Positions 509-7,946 are shown, numbered from the stretch's first letter. The stretch is 10,159 bases of DNA from a virus (IMGVR_UViG_3300042564_004235); one strand, 5' to 3'. The notes: generated from the letters alone by a model not told the origin. Made by a program: numbers and translations.

Positions 509-1537
509 ATGAGTGACGCAGCAAGAGAACTATTAGATGAATTTAATGAAGGAAATTGGGATGAAGTTGGCTCGTATTTCAACGACGACTTTAGTTTATT
601 TTTAGATTATTTAGAAAAAAATGGTTTAGAAGGAGAATTAGATTATGAAAGGGTTGACGACGAGTGGCAAAATATAATATTACTTCGTAAATTAGAAAAA
701 TACCCTCAAGAAACATTAAAATATATTTGTGATAATATAATTACAGACGTTTATCCAATGGAAGATGGGTATTATCTGCATTTAAACGATAGGACAGAAT
801 TGGCCGATTTATTTAAAACATATGGTAGAGACACTTCACCGTATGATGTTGCAAGGGCTGTTTTAGGTGAAGATTATTGGGAACCTTATTGGGACACAAC
901 TGATGACGTTTATAGAGATGTTATTGATGATTTAAATGAGGAAAATAAAAATCATTTAGCAAATTATATTGTAAAAAATATTGGAGATCAAGAACTACCA
1001 CTTGATGATTATGAAGACGCACTATTTCACCAATTTTCAGAAGAACAAGGAACTGAAGGTGTTTTTAAAATAACAAGTGAAAATGTAATGAAATTTATTA
1101 AGGATGAAGAAGCAATGAAAGAAATGTTCAGAAAAGACCTTGATGAATTAAAAAGTGAATTATATTCCATTCATAATAATGCATATAACGGAGCATATAC
1201 TGATGAAATATATAATAATGTTTGGAATGAACTTTCAGGATATTTTGAACCAAAATCATGGAAATACAATGAAAAAGAAAGATATGATGGTAAAAAAATC
1301 CAACAAGAGTATATTAAAATAAATGATTTTTATAGTGATATTTATACATTTTTAAGTGAAAATGAAGATAAACAGTATAGTGATCAGTCATTAGGATATT
1401 GGGGATCATATACTGGGTTTGTTTCAAATATGATGGATAATGGTGAAAGGGATTGGTTATCTTTTAGAATACCCGATTATCCTGATTGGACAAGAATTAA
1501 AAAGAACATAAATGATATTTTTGTTGATTATATCTAA
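509..1537 (+). CDS. Hypothetical, highly acidic 342-aa protein
   Basis: Long ORF starting 3 nt after the upstream stop, with its TAA overlapping the next ATG (TAATG). 18 of the first 52 residues are D/E and it is rich in Y/W/F. No family recognised and no N-terminal tag. Confidence 0.85.
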   Translation: MSDAARELLDEFNEGNWDEVGSYFNDDFSLFLDYLEKNGLEGELDYERVDDEWQNIILLRKLEKYPQETLKYICDNIITDVYPMEDGYYLHLNDRTELADLFKTYGRDTSPYDVARAVLGEDYWEPYWDTTDDVYRDVIDDLNEENKNHLANYIVKNIGDQELPLDDYEDALFHQFSEEQGTEGVFKITSENVMKFIKDEEAMKEMFRKDLDELKSELYSIHNNAYNGAYTDEIYNNVWNELSGYFEPKSWKYNEKERYDGKKIQQEYIKINDFYSDIYTFLSENEDKQYSDQSLGYWGSYTGFVSNMMDNGERDWLSFRIPDYPDWTRIKKNINDIFVDYI

Positions 1538-2568
1538 TGAAAGTAATAATAACACAAAAACAACTTCAACAAATTAGAGAAAACGCATCTAAAAAATTTA
1601 GTTGTGAGGGTAAGAATTGTGAACATTCTTGGGAGATAGAAAAAAAAGACGAACATCCCTATCTATGTCATATGTGTGGTTATGATTCTGCAAAAGAAAA
1701 ACATAACTACGACGAACTTGAAAACTTTTGGAAGAACTATAAAAAAGAAGAAGAGGTTACAGAAAAGTGGTCAGAGAAATATAAAAAAAGTATTAACTGT
1801 AGTAACCCAAAAGGTTTTTCTCAAAGAGCACATTGTCAAGGAAGAAAAAAGAATTTAAAAGAAGAATTTGAAAAAGAACAATTATTCAAAGAAGTTATTG
1901 AAAGAGATGTGAATGAATATGCATCAAACTATGAGTGGTGTGATGGAATAGAAATTGACATAAGAGAAACTAATTGGTTAACTGAAAAACAAAAACCTGT
2001 TTATGAATACAAAATAAAATTCAAAAACACTTCAATGGTTAGTTATAAAGAACAAGAAAATTTGTTTGATGATATTATGTTTGTTCATACCATGTATTTT
2101 CCTATAGAAGAAAGTGATGTTGATTGTTACATGTCAGTAAAATCAGTTTACCCTAATGGTGATGAAGGAGCATTTCCTTATAGTTATGATAATTATAATG
2201 AACAAATAACAGAATCGGAAGAAAAAGAAGATAAACTAAAAATAAGTGGTTACGACTTAGATAAAATAAAACAAGCCCTTCAAATGTTATCTCAAGTTTC
2301 TGAATCTGTTGGAGAATTTGTTCCATTAGAATTTAAACTTTATGGGTATCAGTTAAGAACCAACGATTTTGGTAAAAGACTAGATCTATATATTGATGTT
2401 GATAAAGATGGTGATGTTTATAATACTATGAGTAGAATTTGGTATGAAATAGGGCAGCAGTTATTAGAAATATTTCAAATGTTAGGGATTAGAGATGAAA
2501 GATATATGAAACCTATGTATGATTTTAAATTTAATAAAAGACCACTATATAATATTGAAACTGTTTGA
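1537..2568 (+). CDS. Tagged multi-module protein: leader, C4 zinc-ribbon-like module, basic KWS..CxNPKGFSQRAHC module, two acidic modules
   Basis: Begins MKVIITQKQLQQIRE. Contains C23-x4-C28...C44-x2-C47 and KWSEKYKKSINCSNPKGFSQRAHCQGRKK (aa 77-105). Coupled to the upstream gene by TAATG. Confidence 0.8.
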   Translation: MKVIITQKQLQQIRENASKKFSCEGKNCEHSWEIEKKDEHPYLCHMCGYDSAKEKHNYDELENFWKNYKKEEEVTEKWSEKYKKSINCSNPKGFSQRAHCQGRKKNLKEEFEKEQLFKEVIERDVNEYASNYEWCDGIEIDIRETNWLTEKQKPVYEYKIKFKNTSMVSYKEQENLFDDIMFVHTMYFPIEESDVDCYMSVKSVYPNGDEGAFPYSYDNYNEQITESEEKEDKLKISGYDLDKIKQALQMLSQVSESVGEFVPLEFKLYGYQLRTNDFGKRLDLYIDVDKDGDVYNTMSRIWYEIGQQLLEIFQMLGIRDERYMKPMYDFKFNKRPLYNIETV

Positions 2569-2953: not shown

Positions 2954-4465
2954 ATGGAGTTTAAAAAACGTGATTTATTGGTAGAAGACAATAGTGAAGA
3001 GGGAATCTTTAAAAAAGTGATGTCTAAATTAAAAGACGTTAAAGATAGGGCGCAATCCGAAATAAAAGAAACAAGAGCGTTAGTTAGAATATTAACTCAC
3101 GCAGTAAAATCATACGCAAAAGATAGAGAATTTGATTTAAACAAGGAAGATAAAGATTTTATCAAAGGACAATCCGCCGATGTTATAAGAACATTAGTTT
3201 TAACTATTGTTGCTATAATACCAATACCAATTCCATTAACACCATTTCTAATTATATTTGGAAAAAAAATCGGAATAGATTTAACACCAAAAGAACAAGT
3301 GATACCTGATAAAGGAAAACCAAAAAAAGATAAGATAGAAGAATCAAAAAAATTAAACATTATAATATCGGAAGAACAATATAATATTTTAAACGAAGTT
3401 GTTAAACCAAAAAATATTATATTATCGCTTTGTAAAAGACAAAAAGAACGAAACATATATTGTGATTTATATGATTTTTATTTAACTCTTGATCCTGAAA
3501 ATACACAACCGACTTTAGAGGCCACAATTGAAGAATTAAACGACTATTTTAAATACAAAAAAGTTGGTATGTTTCCAATACTTGTTAAATTAGCTCTTCA
3601 GAATAAAGAAAAAACTGTATCATATTTAAAACTGATTTCTGAATTTATAGATAGAAAACAATTTGATAAGACAGAAACAAAAAGAATAATAAACAAACAA
3701 AGAAACAGGACGGATATTTCAGTTAAAGATGTTGAACAATTGGCTAAAGATGCCAGAAGATTAGAACATCAAAAATATGAAGAAAGGTTTCACGGAGACT
3801 ATTTCAAAAAGAAATCAACATTTTTAAGACTAAATTATTCTTGTGATGATGATGTTAAAGAGAGTTTGTTCAATATTCTTACAAGAGTTGGCTCAAAAGA
3901 AAGGACAATAGATGAAGTTTTTGAACAAGTAAAAAGATGTATTTTACAAACATTTGATAAAGGAATATATTATGTCAAGGCGGATTTAGAATCCACATCA
4001 AATTTTGTTTGTAGTGGAGAAACAATTTTTAATGCCGGCAGCAACTTTGAGGTTAAAAAAATGGATCCATTTGTTGATAGTTATTTATCTGAATTTTTAT
4101 CAATCTTCAAAGAAACAGAAAAAATTCAATTTAAAGGAGAATACATAGGAATTTATAATGAGTTAATTCAAAGATTATATGAATGGCTTATTTCTTCAGA
4201 AGAGGCTAATGCGTATATAGAAAAGGTGAAGTCTCAAATAACAGGAATCATTTACGAAAATGATATAATAGTTCCAATACAATATATAGATTTATACTGG
4301 TCTAATAAAGGTCAAAGAGGTTGTGACGAAAAAAGATTGTCAATAAGATTTAAAATAAAAAATGATGTGGGGAGTGAAATACAAACATATAGATTTATTA
4401 ATAGTAACGAATTATCGCTCGTAACTAAAAAAGTCTCAACATCACAAAAAATAGTTTGCCCATGA
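2954..4465 (+). CDS. 503-aa fusion protein: LETM1-like hydrophobic domain, internal copy of the leader tag, possible PD-(D/E)xK nuclease-like C-terminal region
   Basis: aa 36-112 (EIKETRALVRIL...LNKEDKDFIKGQSADVIRTLVLTIVAIIPIPIPLTPFLII) resembles, from memory, the LETM1-related segment. aa 134-148 LNIIISEEQYNILNE matches the tag. KAD344...E366-V-K368 fits a D...ExK motif. The stop TGA overlaps the next ATG (ATGA). Confidence 0.7.
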   Translation: MEFKKRDLLVEDNSEEGIFKKVMSKLKDVKDRAQSEIKETRALVRILTHAVKSYAKDREFDLNKEDKDFIKGQSADVIRTLVLTIVAIIPIPIPLTPFLIIFGKKIGIDLTPKEQVIPDKGKPKKDKIEESKKLNIIISEEQYNILNEVVKPKNIILSLCKRQKERNIYCDLYDFYLTLDPENTQPTLEATIEELNDYFKYKKVGMFPILVKLALQNKEKTVSYLKLISEFIDRKQFDKTETKRIINKQRNRTDISVKDVEQLAKDARRLEHQKYEERFHGDYFKKKSTFLRLNYSCDDDVKESLFNILTRVGSKERTIDEVFEQVKRCILQTFDKGIYYVKADLESTSNFVCSGETIFNAGSNFEVKKMDPFVDSYLSEFLSIFKETEKIQFKGEYIGIYNELIQRLYEWLISSEEANAYIEKVKSQITGIIYENDIIVPIQYIDLYWSNKGQRGCDEKRLSIRFKIKNDVGSEIQTYRFINSNELSLVTKKVSTSQKIVCP

Positions 4466-5430
4466 AAATAATATTAACTGAAACACAATATAAAAATTTG
4501 ATGGAGGGATTAGCTGATGATGATGTATTCAGAGACACCATTAAAGGTTATGAATCTACAGTTACGGATTCAAGTGGACAACATTATACTTTTGATGATA
4601 AAGACCCAAAAAATCCGAAGACTTTTGTTAAATCATCTGCAGATAAAAAAGGTGGAACATTAACAATTGGTTGGGGACATACAGGGGAAACCGCAAAACC
4701 AGGTAAAAAAATATCAAATAGTAATGCTGAAGAATTATTAACAAGTGATATAACAAAAGAAGAAAATAAGGCAAAAACAATTTTTCCTAAGTATACTTCA
4801 TATCCACTATATGTACAAAGAGCGTTAGTAAATGCCGTTTATAGGGGAGAAGCGAAAAGTACATATGAATGGGTTAAGTCGGTAAATTCGGGTAAATGGA
4901 TTACCGCGGCAAAAGAATATTTAGAAGGTTGGGACATTGATTTTTCTCAAGCAAATAATCCAAAATATAAAGGGGGCGTTGCCGACAGAATGGTTACTAA
5001 CCAAAAAGCCTTTGAAAAATACGGAGAAGAATTAAAAAAAGGTAAAACAACCACGACCACCACAAAAAAAGAAACCACCACAACTGAATTAACATATTCA
5101 ACAGAAGGTATAAGTTATATAATGTTAGAAAACGAATTGGCGAGTTTAACTGCCGGAAAGAAATACAAAGTTCACCGATTCCCTAAAGATAGTTTTTTTG
5201 ATTTTAGATTAGAAGTTGGTCCATACCCACCATCAAAAAAAGAAGGTAGGTATTTAGTTTTTTTTAGAAATGGTGTTATTAAATGGTATAATGGAAATGA
5301 ATTCTCAGGAAGAGGTAGTTGGGGATATAATATAGATCAGAATAAATGGAGAATAATAGGTAAAAATGGAGAAATAAGTTTATCTACCGCTATCAATAAT
5401 CCCGTTAATAATTTTGCAAACGTAGCATAA
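4462..5430 (+). CDS. Tagged GH24 (T4-type phage lysozyme) muramidase with Thr-rich linker and unknown C-terminal domain
   Basis: ATG 4462 (ATGA overlap) is preferred over TTG 4456 because it begins the tag MKIILTETQYKNLME. Lysozyme motifs: IKGYE31, YTFD45D46, T68IGWGH, AEELLTSD, ALVNAVY, VNSGKWITAAKEYL. Linker TTTTTTKKETTTTE. Confidence 0.8.
   Translation: MKIILTETQYKNLMEGLADDDVFRDTIKGYESTVTDSSGQHYTFDDKDPKNPKTFVKSSADKKGGTLTIGWGHTGETAKPGKKISNSNAEELLTSDITKEENKAKTIFPKYTSYPLYVQRALVNAVYRGEAKSTYEWVKSVNSGKWITAAKEYLEGWDIDFSQANNPKYKGGVADRMVTNQKAFEKYGEELKKGKTTTTTTKKETTTTELTYSTEGISYIMLENELASLTAGKKYKVHRFPKDSFFDFRLEVGPYPPSKKEGRYLVFFRNGVIKWYNGNEFSGRGSWGYNIDQNKWRIIGKNGEISLSTAINNPVNNFANVA
5047..5088 (+). 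repeat. Low-complexity Thr-codon run encoding an interdomain linker
   Basis: aca acc acg acc acc aca aaa aaa gaa acc acc aca act gaa encodes TTTTTTKKETTTTE. Confidence 0.7.
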
Positions 5431-6000
5431 ATGAAAGTAATACTAACTGAAGCACAATATAGAAGACTCACTGAGGAAAACCTTAGAGAGTTTTTGTATT
5501 CATTTTGGGACAACCAAAAAAGACAAGGTGAAGACCCATCTTTAGATGACATTATATTTCAGGTTACCAACATTATAAAAGGTAGTAGCGATGACCACAG
5601 AACAATTAGACCAATATGGTATGAATATAATGGAGGGTATGATGTGTTACTAAAAAAAATAGATGAAGAATTTTTAAATAAAGAGTTTCATTTAGAGGGT
5701 AGTGAAAATCTTAAAATGGATTTCAAAATTGATGGTATTGAATCATATGGTGAAGACGTATATGGTGGAATGGTTGACATTATTTGTCAAATATTGGATG
5801 GAACTGTTGATGGAAACTTTTATAATCAAGAAACTGAAGAGATGGAAATGGTTCCTAACATGTATATTGGAGATCAATACGCCGAATTAGAATACGATAC
5901 AGGAGATTTTGAAACTTTTTTAAGAGACGAGATACAAAGTTTTTTGGATCCCATAATGGAAAGGTATGGAATACCTTATCATCTTGAAATGCTTGTATAA
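5431..6000 (+). CDS. Tagged acidic hypothetical protein (189 aa), probable distant paralogue of 6000-6551
   Basis: Starts MKVILTEAQYRRLTE immediately after the upstream TAA. About 42 D/E versus about 16 K/R by manual count. Confidence 0.85.
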   Translation: MKVILTEAQYRRLTEENLREFLYSFWDNQKRQGEDPSLDDIIFQVTNIIKGSSDDHRTIRPIWYEYNGGYDVLLKKIDEEFLNKEFHLEGSENLKMDFKIDGIESYGEDVYGGMVDIICQILDGTVDGNFYNQETEEMEMVPNMYIGDQYAELEYDTGDFETFLRDEIQSFLDPIMERYGIPYHLEMLV

Positions 6001-6551
6001 TGAAAATAATAATAACAGAAAGACAGTATAAGATTTTAGAATCACAACAAGACGACGATCGTGTTGCGATGAAAGCACTTCACATTATTTGGCAAGATGA
6101 AATCGATTCAACAGGAGAAATTGATTTTGATCCAAAGATTGTAGATTACATAGGTTATAGACCAAAAGGAGGAGTTCATGAAATGTATAGAGACTTTCTT
6201 GGTGGTTGGGACAATATGGTTGAAAAATCATATGAACTAATGGATAGGACTTTTGATACTATGGATTATGATTTTAGGGGAGGATATGATTTTAGATTCA
6301 CAGTCCAAGGTAATAATGACTATGAAGAAGATAATTCAACATATGTTGATTGTCCAATTAAAAGTGACGGAAAAGTAACATTAATGACAGATGGTGAAAC
6401 ACATTTGTTAAGTGAACTTGAAGAAAATTATGATATGTGGTGGGAAGTTGAAAGTGAGATTAGATCACTGATTGAAGATATTTTATATAAAGAAGTTACA
6501 AAGAAAACAGGAATACTTGTTGAAGTAAATATGTGTTGGATAAAAGAATGA
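6000..6551 (+). CDS. Tagged acidic hypothetical protein (183 aa)
   Basis: Starts MKIIITERQYKILE with a TAATG overlap. About 42 of 183 residues are D/E by manual count. Confidence 0.85.
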   Translation: MKIIITERQYKILESQQDDDRVAMKALHIIWQDEIDSTGEIDFDPKIVDYIGYRPKGGVHEMYRDFLGGWDNMVEKSYELMDRTFDTMDYDFRGGYDFRFTVQGNNDYEEDNSTYVDCPIKSDGKVTLMTDGETHLLSELEENYDMWWEVESEIRSLIEDILYKEVTKKTGILVEVNMCWIKE

Positions 6552-6952
6552 AAATAATAATAACAGAAAGTCAGTATAAAATGTTGTTGGAATCAAATAC
6601 AGATTCCATGCAAAGTCTTATTGACATGGCTTTTGATCAGGTAAAAGAAAATTGTGAAGGTGGGTATTATATTAGATCACATCAAAATCTTATTTGTGAC
6701 CCTGTAGATATGATTGAAGAAATTAAAGTAGTGGACGTATCAAAAGTAACATCTATGGATTATTTTGAAAAAAATAAAATGGATGTTATACACATAAAAG
6801 TTAATTGTTATGTTGACTCAATATACGAATATAACAATTTAGATAACTTTATTTATGAACTACAAGCAGAGGCAAGAAACATTATTGGTGGTAGATTCAT
6901 TACTATAGAAATAGGAGAAATAATTAATAAAAGAAAAGACTTCAATTGGTAA
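6548..6952 (+). CDS. Tagged hypothetical protein (134 aa)
   Basis: Start reassigned from 6533 to ATG 6548 (ATGA overlap), which begins the tag MKIIITESQYKMLLE. Confidence 0.85.
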   Translation: MKIIITESQYKMLLESNTDSMQSLIDMAFDQVKENCEGGYYIRSHQNLICDPVDMIEEIKVVDVSKVTSMDYFEKNKMDVIHIKVNCYVDSIYEYNNLDNFIYELQAEARNIIGGRFITIEIGEIINKRKDFNW

Positions 6953-7326
6953 TGAAAATAATAATAACAGAATATCAGTATAACTTACTTCAAGAAACCT
7001 TTGGTAGGGATAGGTTTGATGCTGAATATGCCGACGAATACCCAAAGTATAAAGGTATGTTTATTAACTTAATTAAAATGGAAATCACCGCATCGGGACA
7101 GACGGAAGATTCTATATTATTGGGTGATTCGGATGGTAAAATTTTGGTTAGTTATAGGAAACCTAGTCGTACTCTTTATTATGATTATAATTGGGGTGAA
7201 GATATTGAAAAGTTAATGCCTTGGCATATTTATAATAGACATTTTAAATATGCATTATTTGATTTTTTTAAATCAATTTTTCCTGATGCTGCAATAAAAG
7301 AAGTAAGAGGTGCTCACGTAGCGTAA
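6952..7326 (+). CDS. Tagged hypothetical protein (124 aa)
   Basis: Start reassigned from TTG 6946 to ATG 6952 (TAATG overlap), which begins the tag MKIIITEYQYNLLQE. Confidence 0.85.
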   Translation: MKIIITEYQYNLLQETFGRDRFDAEYADEYPKYKGMFINLIKMEITASGQTEDSILLGDSDGKILVSYRKPSRTLYYDYNWGEDIEKLMPWHIYNRHFKYALFDFFKSIFPDAAIKEVRGAHVA

Positions 7327-7334
7327 TATTAAAT

Positions 7335-7946
7335 ATGAAAATAATAATAACAGAAGAACAATTTAATAAGTTACAAGAAAGTGACAAGGATTTTAACAAA
7401 ACAAAAACTCTTGTCAACTCTATGTTTGAACAAGGATATAGTATTGATGACATACTTAAATTTACTGGTTTAGATAAAGATGTTGTTATAGTGTTATTTT
7501 ATGACCGTGAAATTATAAAAGACCAAATAGAAGAAAGTATAGATAAATATGAATACTTATATCACTTACTTTGGGATGGTGAATTATTAAATAAAACACA
7601 CAAATACGAAGACGGATCAATTGCTATTATTGGGTTTGATCGTTTTTCGGGGTCAATTCATTTTAATTATTTGTCAGAAGGTTATGAACTAAGAGGTTAT
7701 GCGACGTTATTTTGGGAGTATGACCCAAAGTTACCAATAGATATTAGTCAGTTTTTTGATATTGATGATACTGAATATGATGTGGATGGTTCTGAACACT
7801 CAAGTGTCGATTTAAGAACAGATGAAAAATTTAATAATATTAGAACATTAAGACAGTTAGTTGATTATTTTAATAATGATTATTATATTATGTTAAAAGA
7901 AGAATTGGATCCTTTATTAAAAAGATGTATAAAATACTATTTATAA
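7335..7946 (+). CDS. Tagged acidic hypothetical protein (203 aa)
   Basis: Starts MKIIITEEQFNKLQE, 8 nt after the upstream stop. D/E- and Y/F-rich. Confidence 0.85.
   Translation: MKIIITEEQFNKLQESDKDFNKTKTLVNSMFEQGYSIDDILKFTGLDKDVVIVLFYDREIIKDQIEESIDKYEYLYHLLWDGELLNKTHKYEDGSIAIIGFDRFSGSIHFNYLSEGYELRGYATLFWEYDPKLPIDISQFFDIDDTEYDVDGSEHSSVDLRTDEKFNNIRTLRQLVDYFNNDYYIMLKEELDPLLKRCIKYYL
7938..7945 (+). promoter_or_regulatory. TATTTATA motif before ATG 7949; candidate phage-specific promoter
   Basis: TATTTATAACTA here is identical over 12 nt to the minus-strand sequence starting at 10039 upstream of the 40-aa ORF. Confidence 0.4.

Follow-up and report, generated by a model that had tools for sequence, protein, structure and literature searches.

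An internal, Met-less copy of a conserved leader peptide in a 503-residue phage protein: gene fusion, peptide selection and a possible role in head loading

Introduction

In phage T4, the first 10 residues of the internal protein IPIII suffice for head targeting, separate residues of this sequence serve targeting and processing, and the prohead protease gp21 cuts after L/I-x-E (PMC9026906). Among the internal proteins of T-even phages, the targeting sequence is the only part that is shared (PMC3012670). The ejection proteins of giant phages carry long propeptides that are cut at several sites; paralogues can have identical N-terminal 15-mers, and in one such protein, SPN3US gp47, the mature part includes a transmembrane segment (PMC5694885). 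Here we describe a 15-residue leader peptide in a viral DNA stretch of 10,159 nucleotides (IMGVR_UViG_3300042564_004235; this whole stretch is called the window, and coordinates count from its first nucleotide). The leader, or tag, heads seven genes of the window and also occurs, lacking its Met, inside a 503-aa protein. A literature search found no publication containing the leader sequence.

The N-terminal copies alone cannot reveal what the leader does, because constraints on the peptide, on the start site and on recombination overlap there. The Met-less internal copy, to which a preliminary description of the sequence had drawn attention, amounts to a natural experiment from which the start-site constraint is absent, and it shows that positions 3-15 are selected as a peptide.

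Results

The internal copy is a genuine match to the leader

With a GC content of 29.5%, the window is AT-rich, and it is phage-like in character. A common peptide, MK[IV]I[IL]T[EQ].Q[YFL]..[LI].E, heads seven of its + strand genes; the apparent general form of this peptide, x-x-I-I-I-[TS]-E-x-Q-[YFL]-x-x-[LI]-x-E, is that of a short linear motif. The 503-aa open reading frame (ORF; 2954..4465, + strand), for which a search of 5.8 billion proteins returned 307 homologues at E<=0.001, starts without this leader and consists of an N-domain, a basic linker, an internal leader and a C-domain. The internal leader lies on the + strand at 3353..3397. Its codons, 134-148, read TTA AAC ATT ATA ATA TCG GAA GAA CAA TAT AAT ATT TTA AAC GAA and encode LNIIISEEQYNILNE, which includes I-S-E140 and ends in L-N-E148.

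We scored the window with a position matrix built from the seven N-terminal leaders (at 1537, 4462, 5431, 6000, 6548, 6952 and 7335), the Met being omitted. The internal site reached 25.0 bits and was the sole site above 5 bits, across the six frames, that is not a gene start. From the exact score distribution, a match of this quality has a probability of 3e-9 per position, meaning that 6e-5 are expected per window; the internal copy is therefore not a product of chance. The preliminary description had read aa 134-148 as the leader with TTA in place of ATG, preceded directly by an I-E-E and drifted in its codons, and the sequence agrees on each point. The I-E-E, a candidate protease site just upstream of the tag on the + strand, is found at aa 128-130 (nt 3335-3343), and the internal copy uses ATT and TCG in place of the ATA and ACA of most N-terminal copies.

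The internal peptide is under selection

In about 60 full-length relatives (start MEFKK, ~503 aa, 51-97% identical), the motif occupies an identical position. A weighted alignment shows 100% conservation of I136 and Q142, with E148 at 93%, T/S139 at 87% and L146 at 81%; tag positions 8, 11, 12 and 14 vary freely. The entropy profile per position, compared between 43 distinct internal copies and 211 distinct N-terminal leaders, is similar in the two sets (Spearman 0.73, p 0.004). For 13 coding sequences, the ratio of nonsynonymous to synonymous change (dN/dS) of the internal tag was 0.16 (pS, the proportion of synonymous differences, 0.61, with synonymous sites near saturation), compared to 0.14 for the N-domain, 0.21 for the C-domain and 0.55 for the ten residues directly after the tag. 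Given the conserved position, the low dN/dS and the shared entropy profile, we conclude that it is the peptide, and not a start site, that is being retained. Homologues thus keep the internal motif, and the earlier suggestion that the peptide itself is functional, rather than only serving initiation, is borne out by this conservation and dN/dS.

Peptide and nucleotide constraints can be told apart

In 2.24 Mb of related loci we counted 259 N-terminal leader copies, distributed over 67 sequence clusters, each genome having ~13-15 tagged genes. The loci L071-L080 come from freshwater sites. Those cargos that could be identified are hydrolases of the cell wall, namely GH24 lysozyme (sometimes with LysM) and Hydrolase_2. 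Two records lack the leader pattern: Flavobacterium phage immuto, which among cultured phages is nearest by its capsid protein (42% identity), and LR756508 (484 kb).

The N-terminal copies are conserved at the nucleotide level beyond what the protein needs. An identical 21-mer occurs at four junctions in the window and in 109 IMG/VR stretches, and, in loci chosen independently of this 21-mer, the N-terminal copies use ATA for 74% of Ile codons vs a background of 40% (p 3e-14) and ACA for 76% of Thr codons vs 47%. Together with the presence of K (AAA) at position 2 of the starts and of N in the internal copies, these features might indicate that the leader is a nucleotide-level start/stop element, acting in coupling, initiation or cassette recombination, and that the internal copy is a passenger of a fusion event. 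We consider this decidedly unlikely. Despite a missing start codon and drifted codons, the internal copy shows a low dN/dS with synonymous change nearly saturated, and it is conserved across homologues that are 51-97% identical; moreover, C-terminal copies of the leader (see below) have no gene to start. The nucleotide constraint is also much weaker in the internal copies, which have ATT at position 3 in 65% of cases and [LI]-N in place of M-K. Because the internal copies relax these features, we assign M1, K2 and codon choice to initiation or recombination, and positions 3-15 to the peptide. The nucleotide constraint is thus real, but it is additional to the peptide constraint and does not account for positions 3-15.

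The internal tag could also be imagined as a second translation start, from which the C-domain alone would be made in addition to the whole protein. An ATG is indeed kept at the internal tag of P0107 (MNILL), L127 (MKIII) and P0109 (MKILI), but in the window and in most homologues the tag begins with a Leu or Ile codon (TTA, CTG or ATT), and as a general explanation this idea is scarcely credible. For the window itself, an internal start was rejected, as the codon is TTA and there is no in-frame ATG, GTG or TTG nearby.

The two halves also occur as separate genes and in other fusions

The preliminary description had envisaged homologues in which the two halves are separate genes, the second starting with MKIII, and had proposed a fusion through loss of a stop/start junction. 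Both expectations find a counterpart among the relatives. The C-domain alone, starting MKIII[TS]E.Q, is encoded by P0065 (371 aa, 59% identical), which begins with MKIIITEYQYKKLNE, and, as a gene of ~380 aa with an N-terminal leader, by L041-L048, L059 and L087 (34-38% identical). L094, a locus from a 281-kb contig, encodes the N-domain on its own, in a gene of 145 aa, and directly after its stop comes a leader-bearing gene that begins with MNIIITEAQYNSLTE (MNIIITEAQ).

Other relatives combine the same modules in different ways. In L127 the N-domain is joined via the tag to a lysozyme-like module; L005 comprises N-domain, tag, ~490 aa, a second tag and the C-domain; and in P0066 a Zn-ribbon protein is joined via the tag to the C-domain. 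In P0086 and P0109 the N-domain sits directly on the C-domain, and the tag follows, together with a relative of ORF5431 (a tagged gene of the window, described below) or with a lysozyme. Fusions of superoxide dismutase with the C-domain exist both with the tag (L100, L104, L122) and without it (P0067 and others).

The tag can also lie close to the C-terminus. Proteins of the P0089 type (563 aa) have no tag between the N- and C-domains and carry one 26 residues from the C-terminus, where IKFIVTDGQFKDLMK and a short tail with an I-N-E end the protein and no cargo follows. In L231 (a 299.6-kb contig), an untagged gene lies 80 nt beyond the gene of this type (L231:4977-6692). A tag-like peptide, QNIVITEAQLEKLLE, is also found 19 codons before the stop of a short open frame far from the main clusters (G006 134119, in L222); it could be a decayed or a C-terminal copy.

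A maximum-likelihood tree of the C-domain (132 rows) implies at least 9 changes of architecture. With the tree rooted at the midpoint only, stand-alone forms are basal and are also nested within the fused clade (P0065, support 97). From the series of split and fused forms and from the number of architecture changes, we conclude that fusion and fission at the leader have happened repeatedly. Taking these results together with the selection data, it is very probable that the 503-aa gene arose by fusion and that its internal peptide is under selection.

In the same tree, dismutase fusions that lack the tag originate twice. The fusions of the C-domain with Fe/Mn superoxide dismutase (P0067-P0120, e.g., P0072; L100, L104, L122) have a preceding N-terminal domain of ~130 aa with an HExxH-like motif. 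The L100 group forms a separate clade, in which the tag is kept between the dismutase and the C-domain.

The tag lies in a flexible linker

The N-domain (aa 1-112; 2954..3289, + strand), whose dN/dS was given above, is helical and contains a hydrophobic, Pro-rich helix-loop-helix at ~aa 78-106. It is followed by a conserved basic linker (aa 113-133; 3290..3352, + strand), which in the alignment ends in K-[LIV]128-x-E130-S-K-K, and, after the tag, by an alpha/beta C-domain with six invariant Cys (aa 149-503; 3398..4462, + strand; confident fold from ~153). In an AlphaFold2 model built from a 16-sequence alignment, helices extend to residue 106 and the C-domain has a predicted local distance difference test score (pLDDT) of 75-90, placing the internal copy at a domain boundary, as previously suggested. 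Residues 114-152 have pLDDT <50 (block means 31-40), and within this low-confidence linker a short helix is predicted at 140-150. A model of ORF5431 (33-sequence alignment; mean pLDDT 89.7) offers a comparable view of an N-terminal copy: its first ten residues average 49 and are unpacked against the domain, and M1 and Q9 are among the few invariant columns of the alignment.

The helix predicted just before the C-domain, and the position of the tag directly N-terminal of that domain in most family members, could mean that the motif is simply the first strand and helix of the C-domain, kept for folding only. We give this possibility little credence, since the pLDDT stays at 31-40 across 114-152 and the domain occurs without the tag in dismutase fusions, while in P0089, P0086 and P0109 the tag follows the domain or is C-terminal. 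In addition, the same motif heads 67 unrelated clusters and is unpacked in the confident model of ORF5431. The motif was accordingly rejected as an element of the C-domain fold on the low pLDDT and the existence of the domain without a tag. Structure prediction does not reveal the ordinary buried strand-helix that the preliminary description had named as the finding that would count against its reading; it places the motif in a low-confidence linker. The disordered placement, the domain without the motif and the 67 unrelated cargo clusters together make it probable that the tag acts as an exposed linear motif recognized in trans.

Neither the 503-aa protein nor its N-domain alone matched Pfam or PHROGs, and tblastn against 50,697 deposited phage genomes found no relative. 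Structure searches with Foldseek (PDB and AlphaFold DB clusters) and VIA-align (48,161 chains) gave no convincing match for either domain, the best Z being 6.0, for helical segments; by these structure and family searches, the C-domain has no known fold or family. The ORF5431 model had no match in the PDB. Weak structural neighbours of the N-domain include LETM1-like ribosome-binding domains and four-helix bundles (probability <=0.2; Z <=6.0), and its Pro-rich hydrophobic segment, IPIPIPLTPF, is almost invariant.

Protease-like sites accompany the tags

Every internal or C-terminal tag, in at least 5 independent contexts, is preceded at 2-7 residues by [LIVM]-x-E-[SNGD], and most copies end in L-x-E. 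The upstream motif is K-[LIV]-x-E-S-K-K in the tail of the N-domain, KLKESKK in P0066, KLKE[SQ]K at the second tag of L005 and P0073, VNESK in L146, L[IV]TESK in L100, L104 and L122, IGES in P0109, and V[TS]E[NG]K in the P0086 and P0089 group. Within the window's family, position 128 is L, I or V in 58/64 sequences, and E130 is present in 63/64. The internal copy itself ends in L146-N-E148, which matches the protease motif L/I-x-E, and I-T-E is contained in the leader at positions 5-7. Protease-type sequence motifs are thus found separating the modules. These flanking motifs lend indirect support to the polyprotein reading put forward in the preliminary description.

[LIVM]-x-E has a background frequency of 0.0215 per position, so that, by our own arithmetic, ~14% of sites would by chance have one in a 7-residue span. 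The probability that five or six independent contexts all have the motif is then ~1e-5 to 5e-5, or ~1e-4 to 1e-3 if Glu-rich linkers double the background. Among the N-terminal leaders, [LIVM]-x-E ends at position 15 in 58% and within positions 13-18 in 76%, vs 12% expected, these percentages being somewhat biased by the selection of hits. As a matter of sequence, the occurrence of [LIVM]-x-E upstream of every copy that is not N-terminal is a new observation.

Tag-bearing relatives encode T4-type head-maturation proteins

G002, which has a syntenic array and a 60%-identical copy of the 503-aa gene, carries a T4-like head module. It comprises a protease of family Peptidase_S77 (80.8 bits; L067:2907-3614) and a Gp23-type major capsid protein (212.8 bits), together with an acidic protein that resembles a scaffold. 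Both the protease and the capsid family also occur in all four near-complete tag-bearing genomes tested (G006-G009; 272-322 kb, 93-100% complete). By analogy with these relatives, the phage of the window presumably has a T4-type protease of its own. A conserved L-I-N-E|A occurs in the capsid proteins of G006-G009 ~12 residues ahead of the conserved core, a position that we take to resemble the propeptide site of T4 gp23.

Adjoining the capsid gene of G002 is a gene (L067:7496-9565) whose 689-aa product begins like a signal peptide and contains a GEVED domain (67.9 bits). GEVED domains are typical of Bacteroidota surface proteins; this domain and the Flavobacterium phage as nearest cultured relative hint at a host among the Bacteroidota.

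The gene array of the window

All N-terminal leaders of the window are on the + strand. The first, MKVIITQKQLQQIRE (1537..1581), starts a 343-aa Zn-ribbon-like protein. Downstream of the 503-aa gene, MKIILTETQYKNLME (4462..4506) starts the GH24 lysozyme gene, and MKVILTEAQYRRLTE (5431..5475) starts ORF5431, where it forms the low-confidence appendage of the AlphaFold model. Four further leaders are MKIIITERQYKILES (6000..6044), MKIIITESQYKMLLE (6548..6592), MKIIITEYQYNLLQE (6952..6996) and MKIIITEEQFNKLQE (7335..7379). ORF5431 (5431-6000) and ORF6000 (6000-6551) are diverged paralogues, 22-23% identical and in the same BLAST cluster; therefore, the tagged neighbours are not all unrelated to each other.

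Between an 83-aa gene and the 503-aa gene lies a terminator-like element (2905-2935), a 7-bp GC-rich hairpin followed by a T run. From 2954 to 7946 the genes follow one another without gaps, which suggests that they form a single transcription unit. The slot 3' of the 503-aa gene is taken by cell-wall hydrolases that differ between relatives, each with the leader: a GH24 lysozyme in the window (4462-5430), and a SleB-type Hydrolase_2 with a peptidoglycan-binding domain in L078:7509-8339 and L231:7545-8342. No signal peptide was seen in the hydrolases of this slot.

Discussion

A model for the fused protein

A testable model, with three predicted cleavage points in one protein, can be drawn from the flanking [LIV]-x-E motifs and the relatives with split or fused genes. 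The 503-aa gene would be a fusion of two cassettes from the leader-tagged array, i.e., a gene for a membrane-hairpin N-domain and a gene for the leader followed by the C-domain. The leader would work wherever it is placed in a protein, as a flexible segment recognized by a partner in trans, and the likeliest partner would be the head-assembly machinery of a T4-like giant phage. By analogy, we infer docking to the core, packaging and cleavage of the 503-aa protein: the leader would bring the protein into the prohead core by docking, in the manner of the capsid targeting sequence (CTS) of T4, and a gp21-type prohead protease would cut at I-E-E130, I-S-E140 and/or L-N-E148, separating the N-domain from a mature C-domain (V149-P503). 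We consider the chances about even that the internal leader serves head loading and cleavage by the head protease. Somewhat more tentatively, a single 15-residue address peptide may act at N-terminal, internal and C-terminal positions, with the copies that are not N-terminal bringing their own upstream protease site.

If the protease parts the modules anyway, fusion or splitting of cassettes at the leader would be nearly neutral. Fused and split arrangements would then be equivalent, which would explain the frequent fusions, and the model in this way suggests a reason for the frequent gene fusion and fission in the array.

Several observations weigh against this interpretation. Only 58% of the N-terminal leaders have E15, and no [LIVM]-x-E is found near 24% of them. 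The head module of G006 is at 69-75 kb, some 55 kb from the tagged genes, whose 15 hits fall at 224 kb, 252-281 kb and 1-14 kb. The peptidoglycan-hydrolase cargos could be ordinary endolysins rather than virion proteins, and the N-domain, being strongly conserved and hydrophobic, is a poor fit to a discarded propeptide. The tag-less fusions of superoxide dismutase with the C-domain imply that the C-domain is not always in need of a tag. Finally, the T4 targeting sequence is established at the N-terminus, and a function for an internal copy is an extrapolation.

Some of these points would be accommodated if the leader were a docking motif, read in trans by a partner outside the capsid (a chaperone; a membrane protein or a hub, a role that the N-domain itself might fill; or a route of export or compartment targeting specific to the phage), with the flanking Glu motifs reflecting no more than linker composition. 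Such a motif would be expected to be exposed, flexible and conserved on 67 unrelated cargo clusters, as it is. The lysozyme and SleB-type hydrolase cargos must reach the cell wall, the hydrophobic-hairpin N-domain, tag and lysozyme-like module of L127 resemble a membrane-tethered lysin, and the tagged genes do not adjoin the head genes. Nevertheless, a Sec or Tat signal is hard to reconcile with a motif that is too short and too charged, and docking to a non-capsid partner leaves the recurrent [LIVM]-x-E upstream of every non-N-terminal copy unexplained. Furthermore, all the tag-bearing genomes that we checked have the T4 head-maturation module, whose protease has exactly such a specificity (PMC9026906). 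We therefore regard a non-capsid partner of any of these kinds as unlikely.

Head loading followed by proteolysis, if true, would make head cargo a set of interchangeable cassettes, encoded as separate genes or as the beads of a polyprotein and rendered equivalent by the prohead protease. It would extend the principle of the T4 targeting sequence to a large group of uncultured phages, and it would provide a portable, position-independent tag for loading proteins into large capsids.

Comparison with known systems

Encapsulins offer an analogy outside the phages: a short terminal peptide sends diverse cargo into a shell of HK97 fold, and fusions of cargo modules occur. The shell is cellular, however, the peptide is usually C-terminal and there is no processing by a protease, so that the likeness is one of analogy only.

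Among phages, the ejection proteins of phiKZ, 201phi2-1 and SPN3US are cut by a diverged gp21-type protease after x-x-E at several sites, and their propeptides exceed 100 residues, with identical N-terminal 15-mers among paralogues (PMC5694885). Those propeptides are protein-specific and use the motif A/S/G-x-E, whereas here one portable 15-mer is common to many families; the upstream N-domain also differs from a phiKZ-type propeptide in being a conserved domain that occurs as a separate gene as well. At the level of genome organization, the PeSL cassettes of T4-type genomes likewise combine a conserved junction sequence with gain, loss and swapping of genes (PMC2839356, PMC4122927). PeSLs, however, are non-coding elements made of a promoter and a stem-loop, while the repeat described here is coding and selected as a peptide.

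The closest parallel is the T4 CTS, found on IPI, IPII, IPIII and Alt and removed by gp21, which is likewise a short conserved leader on unrelated proteins encoded in a plastic gene array. A T4-type protease (Peptidase_S77) and a Gp23-type capsid protein are also present in the phage clade studied here, and the leader, like the CTS, contains and usually ends in the L/I-x-E motif of gp21 (PMC9026906, PMC3012670). The CTS has 10 residues vs 15 here, with only M-K and Q/E in common by eye, and as sequences of 10-15 residues are too short for a test of homology, we treat the likeness as analogy and not as homology. Packaging and removal of the leader, moreover, are predictions in the present case. 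The leader differs from the CTS in occurring also at internal and C-terminal positions, each time with an extra upstream [LIVM]-x-E-[SNG], and in its reach, since a genome has ~13-15 tagged genes and the cargos form at least 67 clusters. If our interpretation is correct, these phages would possess a modular system of packaging and processing much larger than that of T4, serving at least 67 cargo families.

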